From an uncultured Candidatus Saccharibacteria bacterium (GTDB lineage: Bacteria > Patescibacteriota > Minisyncoccia > Minisyncoccales > GWA2-38-27), in the NCBI GenBank assembly GCA_964391095.1, contig CAYMJA010000001.1, positions 1-59,795 on the forward strand: a stretch of 59,795 bases of DNA. Direction: 5' to 3'. A program made the translations under genes and the position numbers. This document shows, one piece after another, positions 4,621 to 45,619 of the stretch. Each line of letters opens with the position of its first letter. Position 1 is the stretch's first letter. Under the pieces are notes generated by a model. That model did not search any database. It was given only the letters and a program-made list of their open reading frames with translations, and was not told the DNA's origin.

Positions 4621-7600
4621 ATGAAGTTTACCCACCTCCATGCCCATAGCCATTATAGCCTACTTGACGGTTTACCTAAAATCGATGAACTTTTAGATTA
4701 TACTAAAGAATTAGGAATGGACTCCTTAGCTTTAACCGACCACGGGGTTTTATATGGAGCAGTAGAGTTCTTTCAAAAAGCCAAGAAAAAAGGAATTAAG
4801 CCAATAATAGGGGTGGAAGCATATGTTGCTTTTGAGAAGATGACCCAGAAAAGACCAAATATAGATAATAAAAGATATCATTTGGTTCTGCTGGTAAAAA
4901 ACGAAGAGGGCTATAAAAATTTAGTCAAACTTATAACTAAAGCCCATTTAGAGGGTTTTTATTATAAGCCGAGAATAGACGAAAAACTTTTGGCAAAACA
5001 TTCTAAGGGTCTAATTGCTTTAACCGCTTGTTTGGCAGGAAAAATTCCTCGTTTAATTTTGGCGAAAAAATTTGAAGAAGCCGAAAATACGGCTCTAAAA
5101 TACCAAAATATTTTTGGTAAAGATAACTTTTATTTAGAACTTCAACATCATCCTCATATAGCGAAGCAAAAAATTGTTAACAAAGCACTAATCTCTATCT
5201 CAAAAAAATACGGCATTCCTTTGGTAGCAACAAATGATGTTCACTATCTAAAGCCAGAAGATGCCGAAGCTCAGGATACTTTGATGTTAATTAACACTGG
5301 AGCTGACCCCAATGACCCAGAAAGGGTAACTATGAAAGCAGATGATTTTTCTCTAAAAACTCCAAAAGAAATGATAGAAGATTTCAAAGAAGTTCCTGAA
5401 GCTATTGAGAATACACAAAAAATTGCCAATGCCTGCGATTTTCAATTTGAACTGGGGAAAGTCAAGCTACCCTATTTTGAAGTGCCTAATGGAAAAACCC
5501 CGAATGAATACTTAGAAGAACTTTGCTGCCAGGGATTAAAAAATCGATACGGCTCAAATCCCAGCAAAGAGATTATAGACAGATTTAATTACGAGCTTTC
5601 GGTTGTTAAACAAACTGGCTTTGCTTCTTATTTTTTAATAGTTCAAGATTTTGTTAATTGGGCTAAAGAAAACAGAATTATTGTCGGTCCAGGTCGAGGA
5701 TCAGTTGGAGGCTCTTTGGTAGCTTACTTATTAAACATTACAAACATCGACCCCTTAAAGCATAATCTCTTATTTCAGCGTTTTCTGAATCCCGAACGAA
5801 TCTCAATGCCTGACATTGACCTCGATTTTACCGACCGAAGAAGAGATGAGGTTATAGATTACATCGCCCAAAAGTATGGACGGGATAAAGTGGCTCAAAT
5901 TATTACTTTCGGAACAATGGCGGCCCGAGCAGTAATAAGAGATGTTGGCAGGGCTTCAAATTATACTTATAGTTACTGCGATAAAATCGCTAAAATGATC
6001 CCTTCTGGATTTAATTTAAATAGGGCTTTAAAAAACATTAAAGAGTTTAGGGATATTTATGAAACCGATGAACAGGCGAAAAAATTGATTGACTTAGCAA
6101 AAAAATTGGAAGGCGTAGCCCGCCACGCTTCAACTCACGCCTGCGGTATAGTAATATCTGAACAGCCCCTCTCAAACTTAATTCCCCTACAACATCCTAC
6201 TCAAAATGATAAAAATATCATTACCCAATACGAGATGCATTCAATTGAAAACCTGGGACTTTTAAAAATAGACCTTTTGGGCCTAAAAAATTTAACTGTT
6301 ATTGAAGACACTCTATCTAGAATTTATGTAGTTCGGGAAGGGAAAAAGGTTAACATTGAAAATATCCCTTTTGATGATAAAAGGGTTTATAAACTCTTAC
6401 AAAGGGGCGATACCACCGGTGTATTCCAACTGGAATCATCGGGTTTCCAAAGATATTTAAAGCAACTAAAACCCACTGAATTTGAAGATATTGTGGCTAT
6501 GGTTGCTCTTTATAGGCCGGGTCCAATACAGTTTATTCCAGATTACATTGACAGAAAACATAAAAGAAGAAAAATAGAATATTTACATCCAAAACTAAAA
6601 CCAATATTAGAAAAAACCCAAGGGATTTGTATTTTCCAGGAACAGTTGATGCAAATTGCTCAGCAATTAGCCGGTTTTACTCTTTCAGAGGCAGATGTTT
6701 TAAGAAAAGCAGTTGGAAAAAAAATAAAGAGTCTACTTTTAGAGCAAAAAGATAAAATGATGCAGGGGATGTTAAAAAACGGAATAAATAAAGAAGTCGC
6801 TCAAAAAATCTGGGAGTGGGTTTTGCCATTCGCTAAGTATGGCTTTAACCGCGCTCATTCAACTGCCTACGCTATTATTGCCTATCAAACTGCCTATCTA
6901 AAAGTTCACTATCCAGTAGAATTTATGGCTGCTCTTCTAACTTCTGAGAGGGCCGATATTGAAAGAATTGCTGTTTTAATTGAAGAATGCAAAAAAATGG
7001 GAATTGAAGTTCTTCCTCCAAATATCAACGAGAGTTTAAAAAACTTCACCGTTGTTCTTTCCCCCACCCCAATTTTGTCAAAGGTCCTTGATGGCAAGGC
7101 GATCGGGACCATTTTTCCTCGAAAAATGACGGGAAGCAAAATAAGATTCGGACTCTTGGCTATAAAAAATGTCGGCCAGAATATCATTGATGTTATTATT
7201 GAAGAAAGAAAAAATAACGGTTCTTTTCAAAGCATTGGAGATTTCCTTCAGAGGGTTAACTCAAAAGACCTAAACAAAAAATCTCTGGAAAGCTTAATTA
7301 GGACTGGGGCTTTCGATGGCTTAGCAGAAAGAAATCAACTTTTAGACAACTTAGAAAGGCTGCTTGAATGGGCACGAGAAACTCAAAAAGCAAAAATGAA
7401 TGGACAAAAAGGACTTTTTGATGATAATCCAAAATCTAACAAGAATGAAATCTCTCTCCTTCCTGCTCCTCCGGCTACAAATTTTGAAAAGTTAAATTGG
7501 GAAAAAGAACTTTTAGGTCTTTATGTAACCTCCCATCCTTTGGAGGAGTTCAAGGAAATTTTAGAAAAGAAAACTTTATCTCTAGTTAATATTAACAATG

Positions 7601-13826: not shown

Positions 13827-13837
13827 ACAAAAAGTCA

Positions 13838-13875
13838 GTCAAAAAGGCGGGAGAACCCGCCTTTTTGACTATAAT
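13838..13875 (+). terminator. Rho-independent terminator
   Basis: 14-bp stem GTCAAAAAGGCGGG/CCCGCCTTTTTGAC. Confidence 0.8.
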
Positions 13876-15053: not shown

Positions 15054-15095
15054 ACAACATAAAAACAGTCCTTGAGGGGACTGTTTTTATGTTGT
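15054..15095 (+). terminator. Strong hairpin terminator (18-bp perfect stem)
   Basis: ACAACATAAAAACAGTCC-ttgagg-GGACTGTTTTTATGTTGT. Confidence 0.8.
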
Positions 15096-18079: not shown

Positions 18080-19054
18080 GTGAAAAAAAATAAAAGAGAA
18101 AAACTTATTGTTATCTTGGGACCAACAGCTAGCGGGAAAACCGCGCTTTCTATTAAACTCGCTAAAAATTTTAATGGCGAGATTGTTTCTGCGGATTCAA
18201 GACAAGTCTACAAAGGAATGGATATTGGTACTGGCAAAATAACCAAAAAAGAAATGAAAGGTATCCCCCATTATCTTTTAGGTGTCGCTTCCCCAAAAAG
18301 GAAATTTTCTGTTGCTCAATATCAAAAATTAGCTCAAAGGGCTATAGAGAAAATTCTCAAAAAGCAAAAAATTCCTTTCTTGGTTGGAGGATCCCCTTTT
18401 TATATTTACTCGGTTGTTGAAGGTTGGATTTTTCCGAAAATGAAGCCAAATTGGCAGTTAAGAAAAAAATTAGAAAAACAATCTAAAGAGAAACTTTTTT
18501 CAACTTTGAAAAAACTTGACCCTCAAAGGGCTAAAACCATTGAAAAAGAAAATAAAAGAAGATTAATCCGAGCAATTGAAATTGCCAAAACCCTTGGAAA
18601 GATACCGAAACTTAAAAAAAATCCTCAATTTGATGTTTTAATGCTTGGTATTAAAAAAGACCCTGAAGGGCTTAAAAAATTAATAAGAAAAAGGTTGTTA
18701 AAGAGGTTAAAAACAAGCCCGCCCGCAACGCTTCGCAAGCGAGCTTGCTCGCGTAGCGATGCGGACGGGGGAATGATTAAAGAAGTAGAAACACTTCACA
18801 AAAATAATATTAGTTGGAAAAGATTAGAAGAATTTGGTTTAGAATACCGATACATTGCTTTATACCTTCAGGGAAAATTAGGGAAAGAAGAAATGCTGGA
18901 AAAATTACAAAAAGAAATTGAACATTTCGCTAAAAGACAAATGACCTGGTTTAGGAAAGACAAACGAATTAAGTGGGTAGAAAATTACCAAGAGACAGAA
19001 AAATTAATAAAAGGATTTCTAAAAAAAGGAGGAAGAAAAATTCTTCCTCTTTAA
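18080..19054 (+). CDS. miaA: tRNA dimethylallyltransferase MiaA (GTG start) with in-frame GC-rich insert
   Basis: ILGPTASGKT P-loop, SADSRQVYKGMDIGTGK, FAKRQMTWFR. Confidence 0.93.
   Translation: MKKNKREKLIVILGPTASGKTALSIKLAKNFNGEIVSADSRQVYKGMDIGTGKITKKEMKGIPHYLLGVASPKRKFSVAQYQKLAQRAIEKILKKQKIPFLVGGSPFYIYSVVEGWIFPKMKPNWQLRKKLEKQSKEKLFSTLKKLDPQRAKTIEKENKRRLIRAIEIAKTLGKIPKLKKNPQFDVLMLGIKKDPEGLKKLIRKRLLKRLKTSPPATLRKRACSRSDADGGMIKEVETLHKNNISWKRLEEFGLEYRYIALYLQGKLGKEEMLEKLQKEIEHFAKRQMTWFRKDKRIKWVENYQETEKLIKGFLKKGGRKILPL
18717..18771. repeat. GC-rich palindromic element (core CGCCCGCAACGCTT) in-frame in miaA
   Basis: GCCCGCCCGCAACGCTTCGCAAGCGAGCTTGCTCGCGTAGCGATGCGGACGGGGG. The same core occurs in gyrB and rpsD. 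Confidence 0.9.
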
Positions 19055-19362: not shown

Positions 19363-19493
19363 CTGTCTCGCCTCCTTCAGATAGAGCTGGAACTTCAGCT
19401 GGAATTTTCACGTTAGTATTCTCCTTTCTCCTCAGGTTTTTAATGTACAAGCGTTAGAGATTATATTATATAGCATTGTTTAGCTTTTAGTCA

Positions 19494-19527
19494 ACCCTTC
19501 ACCTTTAATCTGTTAAAGGTGAAGGGT
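19494..19527. repeat. CCCTTCACC-family inverted repeat at the gatB 3' end
   Basis: ACCCTTCACCTTTA-atctgt-TAAAGGTGAAGGGT. The right arm encodes the last residues and the stop of gatB. Confidence 0.9.
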
Positions 19528-21003
19528 CAAGAATTCTTGGATTAAGCGGTTAACTATTTCGGGATTAGCTCTTCCTTTAGTAGCAGCCATTACCTGTCCT
19601 ACTAAAAATTGAAGGGCATTTTTTTTACCTTTTTTATAATCTCCAACTACTTTTTGATTTTTTGAGAGAACATTTTTTATTACTTTTTTAATCTCTTCTT
19701 CATTAGTTAATTGGGTCCAACCCTTTTCTTTAATAATATGGGAAGGGTCAGCGCCTGTTCCGAACATTTCTTCTAAAACTTGTTTTGCTATTTTGCTTGT
19801 TATTTTTCCTTCATAAATTAAAGTAACGAACTCAGCGAAATTCTCCGGAGTGATTAAAAAATCTTCGCCAGAAACCAGGGCCCTCTTAAGTAATCTTTGA
19901 AGGTCGGTGATAATATAATTTGAAGCAAGTTTAATCAATTGATTCTTTTCCTGTTCAGCAATTTTTGTCTTAAATTCAATTACCTTTAGCCAGTTTCTCA
20001 ATTCTGAAACTACTTTTTCAAAATATTCGCCGAGGTCTTTATTTGCGATAAAGATATTAGAACTTTTCTCTTCTAAATTATACTCTCTAACAAACCTTTC
20101 TCTCTTTTGTTGGGGCAACTCAGGGATTTCTGCCCTTATTTCTTGAATAAAATTCTTATCTAAATGAAGAGTTGGTAAATCGGGTTCGGGAAAGTATCTA
20201 TAATCATAAGCTTCTTCTTTTTCTCGCTGGCTAACCGTTGCTTTTTTTATGTCATTCCATCCTCGGGTTTCCTGAACAATCTTTTTGCCGGCATTTAAAA
20301 TTTCTTTTTGTCTTTTGATTTCATAGTTAACTGCCCCTTCTACCGCCCTAAAAGAGTTCAAGTTCTTAATTTCAACTTTGGTTCCTAACTTATCTAAAGT
20401 TTTATTCTCCGGCAAAAGAGAAATATTTACCTCCACACGCAACTGTCCTTTCTCCATATCAGCATCGGAGACACCGAGATATCTTAAAATTAGTTTTAAT
20501 TCTTCAGCAAATTTTCTTGCCTCTTTAGCTGTTCTCAAATCTGGCTCAGTAACTAACTCCATTAAAGGAATACCCGCTCTATTGAAATCAACTAAAGAAT
20601 AATTTTCCCTTTCGGGGTGAATTAATCTTCCAGTGTCTTCTTCAAGATGAACCCTTGTTATGCGAATTTTTCTATTCTCAGTCTGTAAAAAACCATTTTT
20701 ACAAAGAGGTTTATCATATTGAGAAATCTGGTATCCTTTTGGTAGGTCAGGGTAAAAATAATTTTTCCTATCAAATTTTGAATCTTCAGGAATTTGGCAA
20801 TTTAAAGCTAACCCTGTTTTGATTACTTTTCTTACCGCGTCTTTATTAATAACAGGAAGTGTTCCTGGATGTCCAAAACATATTGGGCATATATTAGTAT
20901 TCGGACGATGCTCGTTAGGATCGTTCTTACAAGAACAAAACATTTTACTCCTGGTTTTTAACTCAGTATGTATTTCAAGACCAATAATGGATTGGTAGTT
21001 CAT
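19513..21003 (-). CDS. gatB: Asp/Glu-tRNA amidotransferase subunit B
   Basis: MNYQSIIGLEIHTEL...CPICFGHPGTLP, GatB/YqeY C-terminus. Confidence 0.95.
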   Translation of the reverse strand: MNYQSIIGLEIHTELKTRSKMFCSCKNDPNEHRPNTNICPICFGHPGTLPVINKDAVRKVIKTGLALNCQIPEDSKFDRKNYFYPDLPKGYQISQYDKPLCKNGFLQTENRKIRITRVHLEEDTGRLIHPERENYSLVDFNRAGIPLMELVTEPDLRTAKEARKFAEELKLILRYLGVSDADMEKGQLRVEVNISLLPENKTLDKLGTKVEIKNLNSFRAVEGAVNYEIKRQKEILNAGKKIVQETRGWNDIKKATVSQREKEEAYDYRYFPEPDLPTLHLDKNFIQEIRAEIPELPQQKRERFVREYNLEEKSSNIFIANKDLGEYFEKVVSELRNWLKVIEFKTKIAEQEKNQLIKLASNYIITDLQRLLKRALVSGEDFLITPENFAEFVTLIYEGKITSKIAKQVLEEMFGTGADPSHIIKEKGWTQLTNEEEIKKVIKNVLSKNQKVVGDYKKGKKNALQFLVGQVMAATKGRANPEIVNRLIQEFLTLHL

Positions 21004-24181: not shown

Positions 24182-24252
24182 ACGAACGAAGTGAGCACCC
24201 CGCTCTCTAAGCTAAATGAATTTTACATACGCCTAGAGGGCAGGGTTATTCT

Positions 24253-24523: not shown

Positions 24524-24608
24524 CCCTTCACCTTTCGGTAGTCATTTAGCATGAAATCAAACTCTATCTATTCCTTCATACAGTAAACATTCCCGAAAGG
24601 TGAAGGGT
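24523..24608. repeat. CCCTTCACC-family element: 16-bp perfect inverted repeats flanking 54 nt
   Basis: ACCCTTCACCTTTCGG ... CCGAAAGGTGAAGGGT, with TCAA on both outer flanks. Confidence 0.9.
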
Positions 24609-24615
24609 CAAGATA

Positions 24616-28819
<4,204 letters not shown>

Positions 28820-30779: not shown

Positions 30780-30823
30780 GGCTATGACAAAAATCCCGCG
30801 ATCGCGGGATTTTTGTCATAGCC
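30780..30823. repeat. Perfect 44-nt palindrome (22-bp stem, GATC centre)
   Basis: GGCTATGACAAAAATCCCGCGA|TCGCGGGATTTTTGTCATAGCC. Confidence 0.9.
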
Positions 30824-34289: not shown

Positions 34290-35375
34290 TTAGAAAATTC
34301 TGGCGATATCTTTTATTGTTACACAAATCATTAAAGCAATTAATAGAAAAAAGAAAAAGACAGTAATTTTTTGCTCAATCTTTTGACTTACTGGCTTTCC
34401 TCTTATTTTTTCAACAATAAGAAACAACAGCCACCCACCATCCAGGGCAGGAATAGGTAAAATATTAATTAAAGCTAAACAAATAGAGATTACAGCTATA
34501 AAGTGTAAAAAATAACTTATTCCTAAAATTCCTACTTGAGCGAATAGTTCAAAAATTCCTACCGGTCCCCTTAATTCAACACCAGGGGGCATTCCTTCGC
34601 CCTGAACCAAACTTGCAATAGTCATTCCCCATCCCTTCATTACAATCACAGTCAAGTTACTGGTAGCTAAAATTCCTTGAATTGGAGCTTGGTACCAAGG
34701 ATAGGACTTCAGGGCCGTTCTAATCAAAGATACTCCCATCGGACCTTCATCTTTAGGAGGTACCTCTCGCGGAATCAAGGAAACATCAAAAATTTCTTTC
34801 CCTCGTTGAATTGTTAAAGTAATCTCTTGACCTTTGTACTTTTCTGTAAGTTTTTGAACCTCATTTGTTTTATTTATTGAAAATTGGTCATTGAGAATTG
34901 AAAATTCTCTGATAGTGTCTCCAATTCTTATCCCCGCTTCTTCTGCCGGAGAAGCCGGGGAAACGGTCATAATTTGAACTTTCGGGTTAACTAAATTACC
35001 ATTATCATCATCTCCTATCTGCATGGGAACGCCCAGATACATTACAATGGTTAGTAAAATTGCGGCAACCACCCAAAAGGAGATAACACCGCCCAAAATA
35101 ATTAAAGCTTTTTGCCAAAAAGGTTTAGTGCTAAAACTCCGAGGATTATCAATTCTTTCCTCGTGTCCGTAAATCTTAACAAAAGCTCCGAATGGTAAAA
35201 GGTTTAAAGAATAAATTGTCTCCCCTATTTTTTTTCCAAAAAGCCGGGGAGGATAACCTATGCCAAACTCTTCAACTTTTACTCCAAATTTCTTTGCCAA
35301 AGCAAAGTGCCCTAACTCATGAAGAACTACTAAGCAGATGAGACTAAAAAATGCAATAAGAATAGTTAAAAGCAT
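34290..35375 (-). CDS. rseP: Site-2 (M50) zinc metalloprotease RseP-like with PDZ domain
   Basis: HELGHF, PDZ (PAEEAGIRIGDTI), NILPIPALDGG. Confidence 0.9.
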   Translation of the reverse strand: MLLTILIAFFSLICLVVLHELGHFALAKKFGVKVEEFGIGYPPRLFGKKIGETIYSLNLLPFGAFVKIYGHEERIDNPRSFSTKPFWQKALIILGGVISFWVVAAILLTIVMYLGVPMQIGDDDNGNLVNPKVQIMTVSPASPAEEAGIRIGDTIREFSILNDQFSINKTNEVQKLTEKYKGQEITLTIQRGKEIFDVSLIPREVPPKDEGPMGVSLIRTALKSYPWYQAPIQGILATSNLTVIVMKGWGMTIASLVQGEGMPPGVELRGPVGIFELFAQVGILGISYFLHFIAVISICLALINILPIPALDGGWLLFLIVEKIRGKPVSQKIEQKITVFFFFLLIALMICVTIKDIARIF

Positions 35376-39480: not shown

Positions 39481-40929
39481 ATGACTAAAACAGTGCGAAC
39501 CATTTTACTTTTATCTCTAGTAATTTTGTTTTTAATAGTTGCTCCTCTAACTATTTTATATTCTTTGGGCTGGCGTTTTGACTGGGAAACAAAAAAAATT
39601 ATCCAACCAGGGGTTTTTTATTTCAAAACTTGGCCTAAAAATGCCCGAATTTACCTTAACACTGAATTTAAAAAGAAAACTGACTTTTTCTTCGGTTCAG
39701 CTCTTATTGAAAATCTTCCACCCAAGCAATATGCTGTAGAAATCAGAAAACAAGGATTTCATAGTTGGAGAAAAACTTTGGAAATAAAAAAAAGACAGGT
39801 TACAGAGACAAAAAATATTACTTTAATCCCAGAAAATCCTAACTTTACAATTATATCCCAAGGAATAGAAAATTTTTATTTTTCTCCTGATAATAAAAAA
39901 ATAATTTCAAAGGAGAGAATAAATACGAATCCTGAAAATCCTGAAAACCCAAGCTGGGCTTTAAAACTCTTTGATTTAGAAAAAAATGTCAAAAGTCACT
40001 TAATTGAGGAAAAAGATATATCTTCTAAACAGGTTCAACTAATTGATTTAAAGTTTTCTCCCGACTCAAAAAAAATATTGCTTGAAGTTGGGATAGAGGA
40101 AAAACCAATCTATTTTCTTTTAGAAATAGATAGAACTCCTGCAGTTTTAACTCCTCTTGATTTCTTAGACAGAGATATAAGAGAAATCTATTTTATTCCC
40201 AGAGATTCCCAAAAATTATTAATACTATTCTCCTTTGACGAAGACAAGGGGAAAGTAAGAAAATTAAGCGAGGTAGATTTAATGAACAAAAAAATCTCTT
40301 CACCCTATCTTGAGAATATAATTACTTGCTCGGTCCTTAAAGACAATATTTATTGTCTTGATAACTTAGGTTTTGTTTTTAGAACTGATTTCTCTTTCTC
40401 TTCTGAAGAAAAATTAAATACAACTCCTCTTTCTCTAAGGGTGGAAACTGAATACAAAATATCTGGAATAAACTCCCATATTTTCCTGAAAGAAGGTAAT
40501 GTTTTATATTTTTTCAATAAAGATAAAAAAATTTTCAAAAAACTTTTTGAACCGGTTAAAAATTTAAGATTTTCACCAAATTCTAAAAAAATAGTTTATT
40601 TCAATAATTATGAAATCTGGATTTTGTTTTTGGAACAAACATACGACCAGCCTCAAAAAGGAGCAGGAGAACAAGTATTTTTAACTCGTTTTTCAGAAAA
40701 AATTGATGAAGTTTTTTGGTACACAAATCATTATTTAGTATTCAATGTCGGGGATAAAATAAAAATCGCCGAAATCGACGACCGAGATAAAATAAATATT
40801 GTTAATTTCGTTGAGTTTCCTTCCTCTAAAGAAGATAAAACCTCTAAGATATTCTGGAATCAAGATAATAAAAAGTTATATATTTTATCTGAAAAAATTT
40901 TATACACTTCGAAAAAATTAGTTCCTTGA
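39481..40929 (+). CDS. Membrane-anchored PEGA-domain / beta-propeller-like protein
   Basis: N-terminal TM, a PEGA-like segment (ARIYLN...YAVEIRKQGFHSW), and repeated FSPD/FSPN..KKI motifs. Confidence 0.6.
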   Translation: MTKTVRTILLLSLVILFLIVAPLTILYSLGWRFDWETKKIIQPGVFYFKTWPKNARIYLNTEFKKKTDFFFGSALIENLPPKQYAVEIRKQGFHSWRKTLEIKKRQVTETKNITLIPENPNFTIISQGIENFYFSPDNKKIISKERINTNPENPENPSWALKLFDLEKNVKSHLIEEKDISSKQVQLIDLKFSPDSKKILLEVGIEEKPIYFLLEIDRTPAVLTPLDFLDRDIREIYFIPRDSQKLLILFSFDEDKGKVRKLSEVDLMNKKISSPYLENIITCSVLKDNIYCLDNLGFVFRTDFSFSSEEKLNTTPLSLRVETEYKISGINSHIFLKEGNVLYFFNKDKKIFKKLFEPVKNLRFSPNSKKIVYFNNYEIWILFLEQTYDQPQKGAGEQVFLTRFSEKIDEVFWYTNHYLVFNVGDKIKIAEIDDRDKINIVNFVEFPSSKEDKTSKIFWNQDNKKLYILSEKILYTSKKLVP

Positions 40930-40990
40930 CCCCGCCCTCTATGCATATATATACTTCATTCAGCTTAGAGGGTGGGATTGATTATTCGTT

Positions 40991-41695
40991 TTAATCTTGA
41001 GATTCTATCTTTGCTCTTAAATTATCCCATTTCATTTCAGTTGCTTCTCCTATATTACAAATTTCTCTAAATTGGCAATATTGACATTGCCAGTTATTTG
41101 GATAATTAGGGATACGCGAAGGGATAATATTGGAATCAACCTGTTTTTTAAGGTTGGCTAATTCTTCTAAAAGAGACCTAGCTTGAGCTTGATTATAATG
41201 AACCATAAATTCTTTTAATTGTTGGTTGTCTTTATTGACATAAAGTAATATCCCTTTTGGAATTTTAAAATAATGCAAATAGAGTTGAATTTGATTAATA
41301 TTTTCTTCTTTAGCTTGACTTAAATATCTAAAACCCGTACTATTTATGCTTTTAATATCGAGGACATACAACTCTTTACCATCACTAATGACTGCGTCGG
41401 CTCTTCCTGAAATCAATTCTTGAGGAGGGATATTTACCTCTGAGGCTATTACATGAATATCCTTAGTGCTGAGAAGAGAATTCATAATGAGTTCATGAAT
41501 ATGATTGCCGTGGTCAAACAATCTTAAAATATTTGCTTCCATTTCTTTTCTGGGAGCATTTTTAAATTTAAAAAATATTGAGCGGGGACATTTTCCAGCA
41601 TCTGAAATATAAAAATGATGCTGCTCTTTATCTTTTTGCCTGTCTAAATAAAATTTATCGATGATTTCTCTCAACATGATTATCTTTTTTTCCAC
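40991..41695 (-). CDS. Cas4-like PD-(D/E)XK nuclease with 4-Cys cluster (orphan)
   Basis: N-terminal Cys (GKCPRS), D...DIK catalytic core, QIQLYLHY, C-terminal CQYCQFREIC. Confidence 0.7.
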   Translation of the reverse strand: MEKKIIMLREIIDKFYLDRQKDKEQHHFYISDAGKCPRSIFFKFKNAPRKEMEANILRLFDHGNHIHELIMNSLLSTKDIHVIASEVNIPPQELISGRADAVISDGKELYVLDIKSINSTGFRYLSQAKEENINQIQLYLHYFKIPKGILLYVNKDNQQLKEFMVHYNQAQARSLLEELANLKKQVDSNIIPSRIPNYPNNWQCQYCQFREICNIGEATEMKWDNLRAKIESQD

Positions 41696-43626: not shown

Positions 43627-43986
43627 TCATTTAACAAGTTCAATTATTGCCATTTTCGCCCCGTCGCTTTTTCTTGGCCCCAGTTTGATAATTCTAGTAT
43701 ATCCTCCTTTTCTCTCCCTATATCTTGGAGCAATTTCGTTAACTAATCTCTTAACTAATTTTTTTGAAAAATATTTTGCTAAAATCCGTCTCGAGGCTAA
43801 ATCCCCTTTTTTTGCCCGGGTTATAAGTTTATCTGCGAATACTGAAATTTCCTTAGCTTTTGCCTCATTAGTCCTCATTTTCTCCCTTAAAAAAAGGGCT
43901 CTGGTCAAAGATTTTAACAGGGCTTTTCGCTGGTCTTTTTTTCTTGAAAATTTTCTTCCTCGTTTTTGCTTACGCATATTGCTCAC
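43627..43986 (-). CDS. rplQ: 50S ribosomal protein L17
   Basis: RKALLKSLTRALFLREKMRTNEAKAKE...GGYTRIIKLGPRKSDGA. Confidence 0.93.
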   Translation of the reverse strand: MSNMRKQKRGRKFSRKKDQRKALLKSLTRALFLREKMRTNEAKAKEISVFADKLITRAKKGDLASRRILAKYFSKKLVKRLVNEIAPRYRERKGGYTRIIKLGPRKSDGAKMAIIELVK

Positions 43987-44837
43987 TTTTTTGATTTCTT
44001 CTTTGGCTTTTTTTGTTTCTTTTTGACCACCGTAGCCTTTTTGGCTGCCGTAACTTTACCCTTCACTTTTCTTTTAGAAAGGGTGAAGGGTTTAACAGAA
44101 GCGGATTTCTTTTTGGAAACCTTCTCTTCAAAAACCTTCTTTTCTTCCGGGACCTTAAAGCTTTCTCTAAACAAGGAAAAGTGTTTTACTAAAATTTCCG
44201 ATGCCCGATAGAACGCTTCTTTGGGAGTAACTGTTCCGTCGGTTTTAATTTCTAAATATAATCTGTCAAAATCTGTCCTTTCTCCTACCCGCATATTTTC
44301 TACTTTATAACTTACTCTTCTGATTGGGGTAAAAATAGCATCAATGGGTATAACGCCAATTTCTAATTTCTCCTGTTTCTTTCTCCGTTCAATCGGTTCA
44401 TATCCAATCCCTTTTTTGATTTGAATTTCCATCTCTAATTCTGCTTTTTTATCAGTTAAAGTAGCAATATGACAGGATTTATTTATTAATTCAACCTGAC
44501 TGGGATAATCGAAATCAGAACCCTTAACTTCTTTTTCTCCTTTAACTTTCAATAATGCTTTTTGGGGCTCATCAGCATATATTTTAAATCTCATTTGTTT
44601 CAAATTCATCATAATCACAATTACATCTTCTAAAACCCCAGGTATTGTTGAAAATTCGTGCTGTACTCCTTTTATTTTCATTTGGGTTACAGCTGCTCCC
44701 GACAAAGAAGAAAGCAAAACTCTTCGAAGACAGTTCCCGATAGTTACTCCATAACCAGGGTATAAGCCCTCAATTTCAAAACGAGCCCAATTATCTTTTT
44801 TGCTAATAATTTTAGATTGCCGTGGTAAAAGTATCAT
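43983..44837 (-). CDS. rpoA: RNA polymerase alpha subunit, N-terminal domain only, plus Lys-rich tail
   Basis: GYGVTIGNCLRRVLLSSL, PIRRVSYKVENMRVGERTDFDRL. No alpha-CTD helix-hairpin-helix sequence is present. Confidence 0.92.
   Translation of the reverse strand: MILLPRQSKIISKKDNWARFEIEGLYPGYGVTIGNCLRRVLLSSLSGAAVTQMKIKGVQHEFSTIPGVLEDVIVIMMNLKQMRFKIYADEPQKALLKVKGEKEVKGSDFDYPSQVELINKSCHIATLTDKKAELEMEIQIKKGIGYEPIERRKKQEKLEIGVIPIDAIFTPIRRVSYKVENMRVGERTDFDRLYLEIKTDGTVTPKEAFYRASEILVKHFSLFRESFKVPEEKKVFEEKVSKKKSASVKPFTLSKRKVKGKVTAAKKATVVKKKQKKPKKKSKK
44058..44091. repeat. CCCTTCAC-family inverted repeat in the rpoA tail
   Basis: ACCCTTCAC...GTGAAGGGT with TTTA on both flanks, encoding KPFTLSKRKVKGK. 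Confidence 0.8.
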
Positions 44838-44953: not shown

Positions 44954-45619
44954 TTAACGTGAGTAAAATTCGAAAATAGCAGAAATTTCTGCTGGCGGAA
45001 TTATTTCTTCTGAAGACGGTTCGCTAATAATTTCTCCCTCCAATTTTTCAATATTAACTTTAATCCAAGAAGGAGGTTTATACTTTTTTAAAACTGTAGG
45101 AAGGTTTTGAAAAATAATTTTTTTACGGGAACGAGGATTCAAACTAATCTTATCGCCCTTTTTTGTCTGAAAAGAGGGAATATTAACCATCTTTCCATTA
45201 ACTAAAAAATGATTATGGTTAATAATTTGATGGGCTTGACGACGAGAAGGAGTAAACCCCATTCTAAAAACCACATTATCTAAACGGCTTTCTAATTTTT
45301 TCACCAATAAAGCGCTTGTATCTTCCCCGCCCGCAACGCTTCGCGAAGCGATGCGGGTGGGTACCTTTCCTCGTTTTTCAAGAACTTCTTTTATATATTT
45401 TCTAAATTGTTTTTCTTCCAAATTATACCAAGCTTTTAATTTCTGTTTTTCTCTTAATTCCCTTCCATATTCAGAAATCGTCCTTCTTCTTCTCTTGCTT
45501 TTTATTCCTGGCGAATACGGTCTTGTTACCATTGAACACTTTGGCGATAAGCATCTCTCGCCTTTAAGAAAAAGTTTCTGCCCTAACTTTCTACAAATTT
45601 TACATTTATTACTTTTCAT
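44954..45619 (-). CDS. rpsD: 30S ribosomal protein S4 with in-frame GC-rich insert
   Basis: Zn-ribbon N-terminus (CKICRKLG...CLSPKC), LESRLDNVVFRMGF, S4 domain. Confidence 0.95.
   Translation of the reverse strand: MKSNKCKICRKLGQKLFLKGERCLSPKCSMVTRPYSPGIKSKRRRRTISEYGRELREKQKLKAWYNLEEKQFRKYIKEVLEKRGKVPTRIASRSVAGGEDTSALLVKKLESRLDNVVFRMGFTPSRRQAHQIINHNHFLVNGKMVNIPSFQTKKGDKISLNPRSRKKIIFQNLPTVLKKYKPPSWIKVNIEKLEGEIISEPSSEEIIPPAEISAIFEFYSR
45325..45361. repeat. GC-rich palindromic element (core CGCCCGCAACGCTT) in-frame in rpsD
   Basis: CCCCGCCCGCAACGCTTCGC|GAAGCGATGCGGGTGGG, encoding PTRIASRSVAGG. Confidence 0.92.

Follow-up and report, generated by a model that had tools for sequence, protein, structure and literature searches.

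A 36-nt palindrome in frame in the ribosomal protein S4 gene of a Candidatus Saccharibacteria genome, a probable copy of a dispersed miniature palindromic element

The palindrome in rpsD and the S4 protein

The DNA analyzed here is a contiguous stretch of 59,795 nt (referred to as the window) from an uncultured Candidatus Saccharibacteria bacterium (GenBank assembly GCA_964391095.1, contig CAYMJA010000001.1), and the focus of this study is a GC-rich palindrome within its rpsD gene, encoding ribosomal protein S4. This gene belongs to a minus-strand set of rpsM, rpsK, rpsD, rpoA, and rplQ, and the window as a whole is AT-rich (35% GC). The two features concerned are as follows:

44954-45619, minus strand: rpsD, ribosomal protein S4 of 221 amino acids (Pfam Ribosomal_S4 at residues 2-84; S4 domain at residues 112-158).
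45326-45361, plus strand (the orientation of the family described below; antisense to rpsD): the S4 copy of the palindromic unit, defined by sequence, empty site, and covariance model.

The plus strand of 45326-45361 (CCCGCCCGCAACGCTTCGCGAAGCGATGCGGGTGGG) was an imperfect GC palindrome of 36 nt, in which 16 of 18 pairs were Watson-Crick and the other two were an A.A mismatch and a G.T pair; in the rpsD mRNA (minus strand), both imperfections become mismatches: U.U and A.C. Pairing of 16/18 was reached at 2 positions in total over 200 first-order Markov simulations of the window. Folding of the region as DNA (plus strand) gave -17.3 kcal/mol (z = -3.35), which was equaled by none of 200 shuffles. 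The covariance model of the family scored 59.5 bits at this site on the plus strand (E = 1e-11) and 40.0 bits on the minus strand, and the copy matched the family consensus, CCCGCCCGCAACGCTTCGCGTAGCGATGCGGGCGGG, at 34 of 36 positions (two differing). An earlier note on this DNA had described a near-perfect palindrome of 37 nt with one mismatch and one G-U pair. The palindrome and its two imperfections were confirmed, but the length was not: since a relative has an empty site here and conservation among 95 copies drops sharply outside the unit, the unit is 45326-45361 (36 nt), and the C at 45325 belongs to the flank. The G-U pair was not found either, the mRNA carrying the two mismatches given above. 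A separately recorded JGI contig (L001) was identical to the window over 3,633 nt, S4 insert included.

In the protein, the insert corresponded to 12 codons (peptide PTRIASRSVAGG, residues 87-98, between V86 and the next E), and KVPTRIASRSVAGGEDTSALLVK is the S4 stretch spanning it. S4 was 221 amino acids long in the window versus 209 in most relatives. None of the five nearest orthologs, all from Patescibacteria and 76-81% identical, contained the insert, their sequences reading KRGKV/EDT or KQGKV/EDT at this point, and S4 of T. thermophilus also lacked the 12 residues at RGKV/EDT. The view of the earlier note that the peptide is an addition relative to other S4 proteins was therefore borne out by these six sequences, while its placement directly after RGK needed correction by one residue, the peptide following RGKV. 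The peptide was lacking in all of these orthologs, so that the counter-case considered in the note, in which relatives encode the same peptide by non-palindromic sequence, did not hold. At the DNA level, the empty site of a relative (L002) was GGGAAGGTA directly followed by GAGGATACA, compared with GGAAAGGTA, the 36 nt, and GAAGATACA in the window. The junction was GTA-(36 nt)-GAA in the window versus GTA/GAG in the relative, leaving the boundaries unambiguous, and no target-site duplication was found at rpsD in this comparison. The unit was thus inserted into the rpsD DNA as a block of exactly 36 bp without target-site duplication, and this insertion postdates the split from relatives with approximately 80% identical S4.

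The S4 structures in PDB showed an alignment gap at the position of the insert, and other Patescibacteria S4 proteins had unrelated insertions or deletions at the same point. In an AlphaFold model based on a 28-sequence alignment (mean predicted local distance difference test score, pLDDT, of 73.8), pLDDT was below 50 at residues 86-98, and the insert lay between helices at residues 69-84 and 101-110. The insert is predicted from this model to be a disordered connecting loop at an indel-tolerant point between the two helices.

The 36-nt family in the window and in other genomes

The pattern CGCCCGCAACGCTTN{5,35}AGCNANGCGG was scanned against one genome per GTDB species, for which few chance matches were expected. 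This pattern fixes 22 bases, and diversity is therefore underestimated and uniformity overestimated. The scan yielded at least 119 loci; among the matches listed, approximately 109 were true copies and approximately 10 were chance matches (Mesorhizobium and others). Further genomic copies therefore exist, and the alternative of a solitary palindrome, raised in the earlier note, fails. The surroundings of the matches were examined in 8-kb flanks, in which the covariance model found 13 further diverged copies, and taxon labels were those of the database records.

The consensus unit was identical in 35 of 95 copies, and conservation across these 95 fell to background directly outside the 36 nt at both ends. 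The unit consisted of a 10-bp basal stem, a conserved A.A mismatch, a 4-bp upper stem, and a loop containing GTAG. GTAG, at unit positions 20-23 (loop and 3' arm), was nearly invariant, and the 14 positions not fixed by the search pattern were conserved too. A double change of C17 to T and G25 to A always occurred together and in both main phyla, so that subtypes C17/G25 and T17/A25 coexisted in distant phyla, while extended variants had differing apical sequences, each folding as one continuous hairpin. Because extended variants still fold and T17 and A25 always co-occur, the hairpin shape appears to be maintained. The covariance model scored the forward orientation approximately 24 bits above the reverse, indicating that the unit has polarity.

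Among the matches listed, approximately 46 loci were labeled as Patescibacteria lineages and 42 as Verrucomicrobiota, as counted from record titles; minor labels (Bdellovibrionales, Margulisiibacteriota, Acidobacteriota, and others) may in some cases reflect mis-binning. All true copies among these matches were in metagenome-assembled genomes (MAGs), with host GC contents of 28-66%. No match to the unit was found in the cultured phages, plasmids, and E. coli genomes searched, and IMG/VR contained two contigs with the unit, one of them in frame in a ParB-like open reading frame (ORF), so that there is no obvious sign of carriage of the element by phages or plasmids. Some Verrucomicrobiota loci carried inverted pairs of units (L042, 4009-4353; L082; L017, 3852-3949) resembling REP (repetitive extragenic palindromic) dimers or composites like miniature inverted-repeat transposable elements; some pairs bounded a conserved spacer of approximately 300 nt and others were 26 nt apart.

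Within the window, copies were located by a scan for GC-rich islands together with a left-arm search:

18718-18769, plus strand: 52-nt variant of the unit in miaA (ORF 18080-19054, plus strand); covariance model score of 34.9 bits.
25906-25977, plus strand: nested pair of units (72 nt, phase 0) in gyrB (ORF 24616-26646, minus strand), from alignment with the consensus.
27353-27394, no strand assigned: possible degenerate copy in pheT (ORF 26651-28819, minus strand); membership uncertain.

The miaA copy was the unit with an extra apical hairpin of 16 nt (CAAGCGAGCTTGCTCG) at the dyad, and matched the consensus at 35 of 36 positions after removal of these 16 nt. The total in-frame insertion was approximately 54 nt, giving approximately 18 extra residues relative to a PDB MiaA, and the 52-nt variant of this type recurred in several MAGs. 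The proposal that the S4 and miaA palindromes belong to one family agreed with these matches (34/36 and 35/36), and the S4 copy was indeed the shortest and cleanest in the window, equaling the unit element of about 109 other listed loci. In gyrB, the inner unit (25924-25959) lay exactly at the dyad of the outer one (25906-25923 and 25960-25977); the outer and inner units matched the consensus at 31 and 22 of 36 positions, respectively, and encoded a segment of 24 amino acids in a variable GyrB loop. The same unit-in-unit architecture was found at another locus (L020). The pheT hairpin was GC-rich and imperfect with family-like ends (CCCGCC...GGGCAG), and coincided with approximately 13 extra residues relative to a PDB PheT; it was missed by the covariance model and aligned weakly with the consensus, leaving its family membership unconfirmed. 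The miaA, gyrB, and pheT hairpins all lay within loop segments that are extra relative to solved homologs. Two other GC islands were rejected as family members, neither having a covariance model score: the one in dnaE (6112-6147) encodes a conserved native motif (GVARHASTHACG), and the one in rseP (34931-34961) a native PDZ motif (SPASPAEEAGI).

Long ORFs accounted for about half of the copies in AT-rich hosts. Host proteins, named from Walker motifs and family-typical sequence (the UvrA copies also being grouped by BLAST), included UvrA, UvrB, UvrD/PcrA, a class I aminoacyl-tRNA synthetase, polynucleotide phosphorylase, and a radical-SAM protein. Three uvrA loci had three different insertion sites, and one (L118) was filled where another (L046) was empty. 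Five of the six frames of the unit are open, and all five were used: PARNASRSDAGG, PARIATRSVAGG, PPATLRVAMRAG, PPASLREALRAG, and RPHRYAKRCGR. On the other hand, the frame containing TAG was never used in long ORFs. Relative to the host gene, 17 copies were sense and 10 antisense. Nearly all copies in long ORFs were 36, 45, 54, or 72 nt, while variants of 46, 52, and 53 nt were almost entirely outside them; two copies in long ORFs departed from this, in miaA (52 nt) and at L076 (56 nt), and in both the frame of the host ORF was intact. With its length divisible by three and five of its six frames open, the 36-nt unit keeps the frame on insertion and adds 12 residues.

Two coding loci had additional features. 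In a Gribaldobacteria MAG, the class I aminoacyl-tRNA synthetase (L019, 1644-4730) contained three in-frame copies: a tandem pair close to the C-terminus (PARNASLSDAVG-PARNASRSDAGG) and, upstream of it, a third that was oppositely oriented (PARIAMQSIAGG). A 1007-amino-acid UvrD/PcrA-like helicase ORF had a unit near its N-terminus (L083, 712-747), and also a long insert that starts with C, ends with VVHNS, and by sequence has the look of an intein.

RNA genes were also involved. One copy was in the T-stem of tRNA-Val(GAC) in a Verrucomicrobiota MAG (L054, 42-150, minus strand), and this gene still scored 44 bits as a tRNA. Units were present in tRNA-Val-like 3' fragments approximately 300 nt from an intact tRNA-Val at five loci (L008, L013, L084, L099, and L113), and in a tandem array with a period of approximately 136 nt at another (L056, 4046-4947). 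Between smpB and infC, the unit adjoined the 5' GGGG of transfer-messenger RNA (tmRNA) in either orientation (L057, 5069-5120; L070, 1890-1925; L108, 3438-3473), and units at L027, L067, and L095 are probably tmRNA-adjacent as well. Since the orientation of these copies was opposite between lineages, they appear to be independent insertions at a favored spot, suggesting that the tmRNA 5' end is an insertion hot spot rather than the site of one conserved copy.

Several further palindromes were observed in the window. A second, unrelated family, (A/G)CCCTTCACCTTTA..TAAAGGTGAAGGG(T/C), occurred at 2603-2638, 19493-19528, and 44054-44102, with half copies near 24524 and 24595; its placements were a C-terminal extension of S16 (peptide VSPSPLAKGEGLK), the Lys-rich tail of RpoA, and an overlap with the gatB stop codon. 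This RpoA (43983-44837, minus strand) had 284 amino acids, matched Pfam RNA_pol_L and RNA_pol_A_bac only, and ended in the Lys-rich tail; no Pfam match to the C-terminal domain of the alpha subunit was found in it. A third hairpin family, CCCGCCCTCTA..(AT-rich loop)..TAGAGGGYGGG, had two intergenic members (24199-24246 and 40929-40976) that were 81% complementary to each other and had terminal CCCGCCC/GGGYGGG in common with the 36-nt unit; the hairpin at 40931-40976 weakly matched the covariance model of the 36-nt family, and one member was adjoined by an ORF (40991-41695, minus strand) with Pfam matches to PD-(D/E)XK nuclease and Cas4-like proteins. Four other palindromes, perfect or nearly so and bordered by A-runs and T-runs (161-196, 13836-13871, 15057-15092, and 30784-30819, the last with 18/18 pairing), had the look of bidirectional intrinsic terminators.

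Comparison with known elements

Rickettsia palindromic elements (RPEs) are palindromic repeats found in frame in unrelated housekeeping genes and in the tmRNA gene, and their peptide segments are tolerated by host proteins without a linked transposase (PMC1458961; PMC10969869). The 36-nt unit resembled them in its in-frame presence in rpsD, gyrB, miaA, and uvrA/B/D, in tRNA-Val, and next to tmRNA. On the other hand, the first-described RPEs are approximately 150 bp and have been described only from Rickettsia genomes (PMC10969869), whereas the unit is 36 bp, GC-rich in AT-rich hosts, near-invariant, and found in Patescibacteria and Verrucomicrobiota. Judged by size and host, not by sequence, it does not belong to the described RPE families.

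REPs (Di Nocera et al. 2013, PMC3733652) are imperfect palindromes of 20-40 bp with variable loops, dimers, and clusters, and certain families extend over distantly related taxa. Intragenic REPs are frequent in uvrA, uvrB, uvrD, dnaE, and the genes of tRNA synthetases, the verrucomicrobium Opitutus terrae being a notable case (PMC3733652). The unit was similar to REPs as a dispersed imperfect palindrome of 36 bp (at least three copies in the 60-kb window, and approximately 109 listed loci together with the 13 flank copies), and in its nearly invariant GTAG, which in the 52-nt variant follows a 6-bp stem and a TT loop. Several differences from REPs were found: in contrast to REPs tagged with GTAG or CGTC, there was no unpaired end tag, the unit ending in CCC...GGG with unconserved flanks; the stem (10 + 4 bp) was longer than in most; and there was no extragenic predominance, approximately half of the copies in low-GC hosts and all clear copies in the window being intragenic. 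The peptides encoded by the REPs of O. terrae (GTGVPPV, VGPALAAG, and HGRHARAT; PMC3733652) also differed from those of the unit. No gene for a REP-associated tyrosine transposase (RAYT) was seen near the copies, the window and the flanks containing no recurrent transposase-like ORF. The absence of duplication would fit IS200/IS605, but the unit is a single hairpin, not two end hairpins, and has no conserved flanking motif such as the tetra- or pentanucleotide 3' of which those elements insert. Because GTAG is away from the base of the stem and a conserved target tetranucleotide is lacking, membership in either REP/RAYT or IS200/IS605 is not established.

Other classes were rejected. The whole unit is one hairpin without target-site duplication at rpsD, unlike a terminal-inverted-repeat element with a DDE transposase; its arms (CCGCAAC/GATGCGG) place the A.A mismatch in the would-be AAC/GTT core of an integron attC, whose core sites read RYYYAAC...GTTRRRY, and copies are solitary and inside genes rather than in cassette arrays; and as for a CRISPR repeat, copies are solitary or, where several, irregularly spaced (135, 272, and 181 nt) with the intervening sequence itself repeated. 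A terminator, a tRNA or rRNA fragment, and a known Rfam family were all rejected as the identity of the unit.

The GC clusters of yeast mitochondria offer a lead only: they are GC-rich palindromes of approximately 30-50 bp scattered over a genome of very high AT content, are regarded as mobile, and are in some cases in frame in var1 and in others in rRNA, but they are organellar and eukaryotic, have other proposed target preferences, and have no known sequence relationship with the unit.

A literature search by consensus, encoded peptides, and terms for lineage and repeat class found no description of the 36-nt family. Its distinguishing features are the 36-bp unit, the lack of a terminal tag, nested insertion at the dyad, the large intragenic fraction in Patescibacteria, and near-identity across phyla.

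Origin of the unit and its meaning

We consider it likely that the palindrome in rpsD is a copy of a dispersed, non-autonomous miniature palindromic element, similar to REPs in size and shape and to RPEs in behavior. Its copies would arise by trans-mobilization of the hairpin, and the likeliest route may be the handling of the hairpin as single-stranded DNA by a tyrosine/HUH-type enzyme, along the lines suggested for REP/RAYT and IS200/IS605. The lack of duplication, a strand-foldable hairpin with a mismatch giving polarity, and the conserved GTAG point to enzymes of this (Y1/HUH) type. Insertions would survive only where the reading frame and protein fold allow, the S4 insert would have no function of its own, and inserts may later accumulate mutations and decay, a course suggested by the gyrB and pheT copies. 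Near-identity across phyla would imply either a strongly constraining recognition step or a mobilizer that is repeatedly transferred.

Several results weigh against this interpretation. When ORFs of at least 100 amino acids from the 119 listed loci were clustered, no transposase-like cluster was found; the recurrent families near the copies were housekeeping only (SmpB, IF3, L20, EF-G, UvrA, and others), the largest cluster (10 loci) was spurious, and a pair of copies around a short interval (L014) enclosed no transposase. In the flanks, direct repeats were no commoner than in shuffled flanks, and neither complementarity nor a strong or conserved target motif was found; without target-site duplication or a conserved target motif, no known transposition chemistry is assignable. 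GTAG is inside the loop, whereas RAYT-associated REPs have an unpaired tag at the stem foot. A near-identical 36-mer in different phyla is unusual for REP-type families and unexplained; the 22 fixed search bases partly impose this uniformity, yet the 14 unfixed positions were also conserved. Moreover, mobility is something we infer from presence and absence between lineages. A more far-reaching possibility, which we regard as doubtful at present, is that of a promiscuous mobile 36-bp hairpin that spreads within and between phyla (Patescibacteria, Verrucomicrobiota, and others), near-invariant and as an exact block without duplication, also into the apex of its own copies.

Among the other explanations, the one that survives best, although unlikely, is that the copies were not transposed and instead arose repeatedly from a conserved master, such as the copies beside tmRNA or tRNA genes, through templated repair or gene conversion, or that they spread in populations by an uptake-sequence-like drive in which DNA with the hairpin is taken up or recombined preferentially. 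The lack of target-site duplication and of a linked transposase, the recurrence of copies at the tmRNA 5' end and near tRNA genes, and the presence of both subtypes (C17/G25 and T17/A25) in distant phyla, as if from conserved sources, are consistent with this. On the other hand, the opposite orientations of tmRNA-adjacent copies favor independent insertions over one master, the junctions have no flanking homology to guide conversion, and uptake sequences usually originate through point mutations rather than as discrete blocks of 36 bp.

The earlier note had also raised an effect of the hairpin on translation of the alpha operon. A functional hairpin in the rpsD mRNA, acting in ribosome pausing, transcript stabilization, or autoregulation by S4, is in our judgment improbable. 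The mRNA strand (76 nt) does fold stably (minimum free energy of -26 kcal/mol; centroid of -25.7 kcal/mol), and REPs elsewhere have been reported as RNA elements (PMC3733652). However, the z-score of this fold was a modest -2.1, 4 of 200 shuffles folding equally well; the mRNA has the weaker, antisense form of the unit (40.0 versus 59.5 bits) with its U.U and A.C mismatches; and no U-run follows the hairpin, which is hence not a terminator. The five nearest S4 orthologs lack the hairpin, so that there is no conserved regulatory design, and members of the family are found both sense and antisense to genes (17 versus 10) as well as in intergenic DNA. The relatives without the hairpin, both orientations, the intergenic copies, and the strand-differing imperfections favor a DNA-level element over an RNA signal.

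Removal of the 36 nt after transcription or translation, by a mini-intron or protein splicing, would make the insertions silent, and would account for their tolerance in rpsD, gyrB, uvrA, and even the T-stem of tRNA-Val, where retention should be harmful. We regard this as very improbable: the reading frame was always preserved, including in the two copies in long ORFs whose own length is not divisible by three (miaA and L076); the stop-containing frame was unused there and lengths that are not multiples of three were largely absent; the encoded peptides differ by frame, making intein-like chemistry impossible; and no Rfam family matched the element. The pattern of frames and lengths is the expected trace of selection on translated insertions, which argues against excision at the RNA level.

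An assembly or sequencing artefact, or a lineage-specific extension of the S4 loop unrelated to any repeat family, is scarcely credible in spite of the restriction of true matches to MAGs and the unrelated indels at this loop in other Patescibacteria S4, because the identical sequence is on the separate JGI contig, the insertion is in frame and contig-internal with diverged and nested copies, the family recurs in short-read as well as long-read assemblies produced by many studies, and the same nucleotides serve different frames in other genes, which also rules out an origin by selection on the peptide.

RPEs and intragenic REPs are the best-known selfish DNA inside protein-coding genes. With its sharp bounds, lack of target duplication, self-insertion at the dyad, and filled and empty sites, the 36-bp family offers a clean system, comprising hundreds of copies or more over uncultured lineages. 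Even within the very small genome of a member of the Patescibacteria, a gene for a ribosomal protein can accommodate an insert of this kind, and the unit accounts for some of the unexplained short protein inserts in these organisms; annotators and phylogeneticists should accordingly be cautious with such segments of 12-24 residues, which are not homologous protein sequence. If identity across phyla reflects one shared mobilizing machinery, its identification would bear on a question of long standing about REP-type elements. If the reading as a promiscuous unit is true, it would imply a conserved hairpin-specific enzyme or host pathway, and a general route to new surface loops in essential proteins of reduced genomes, S4 included.

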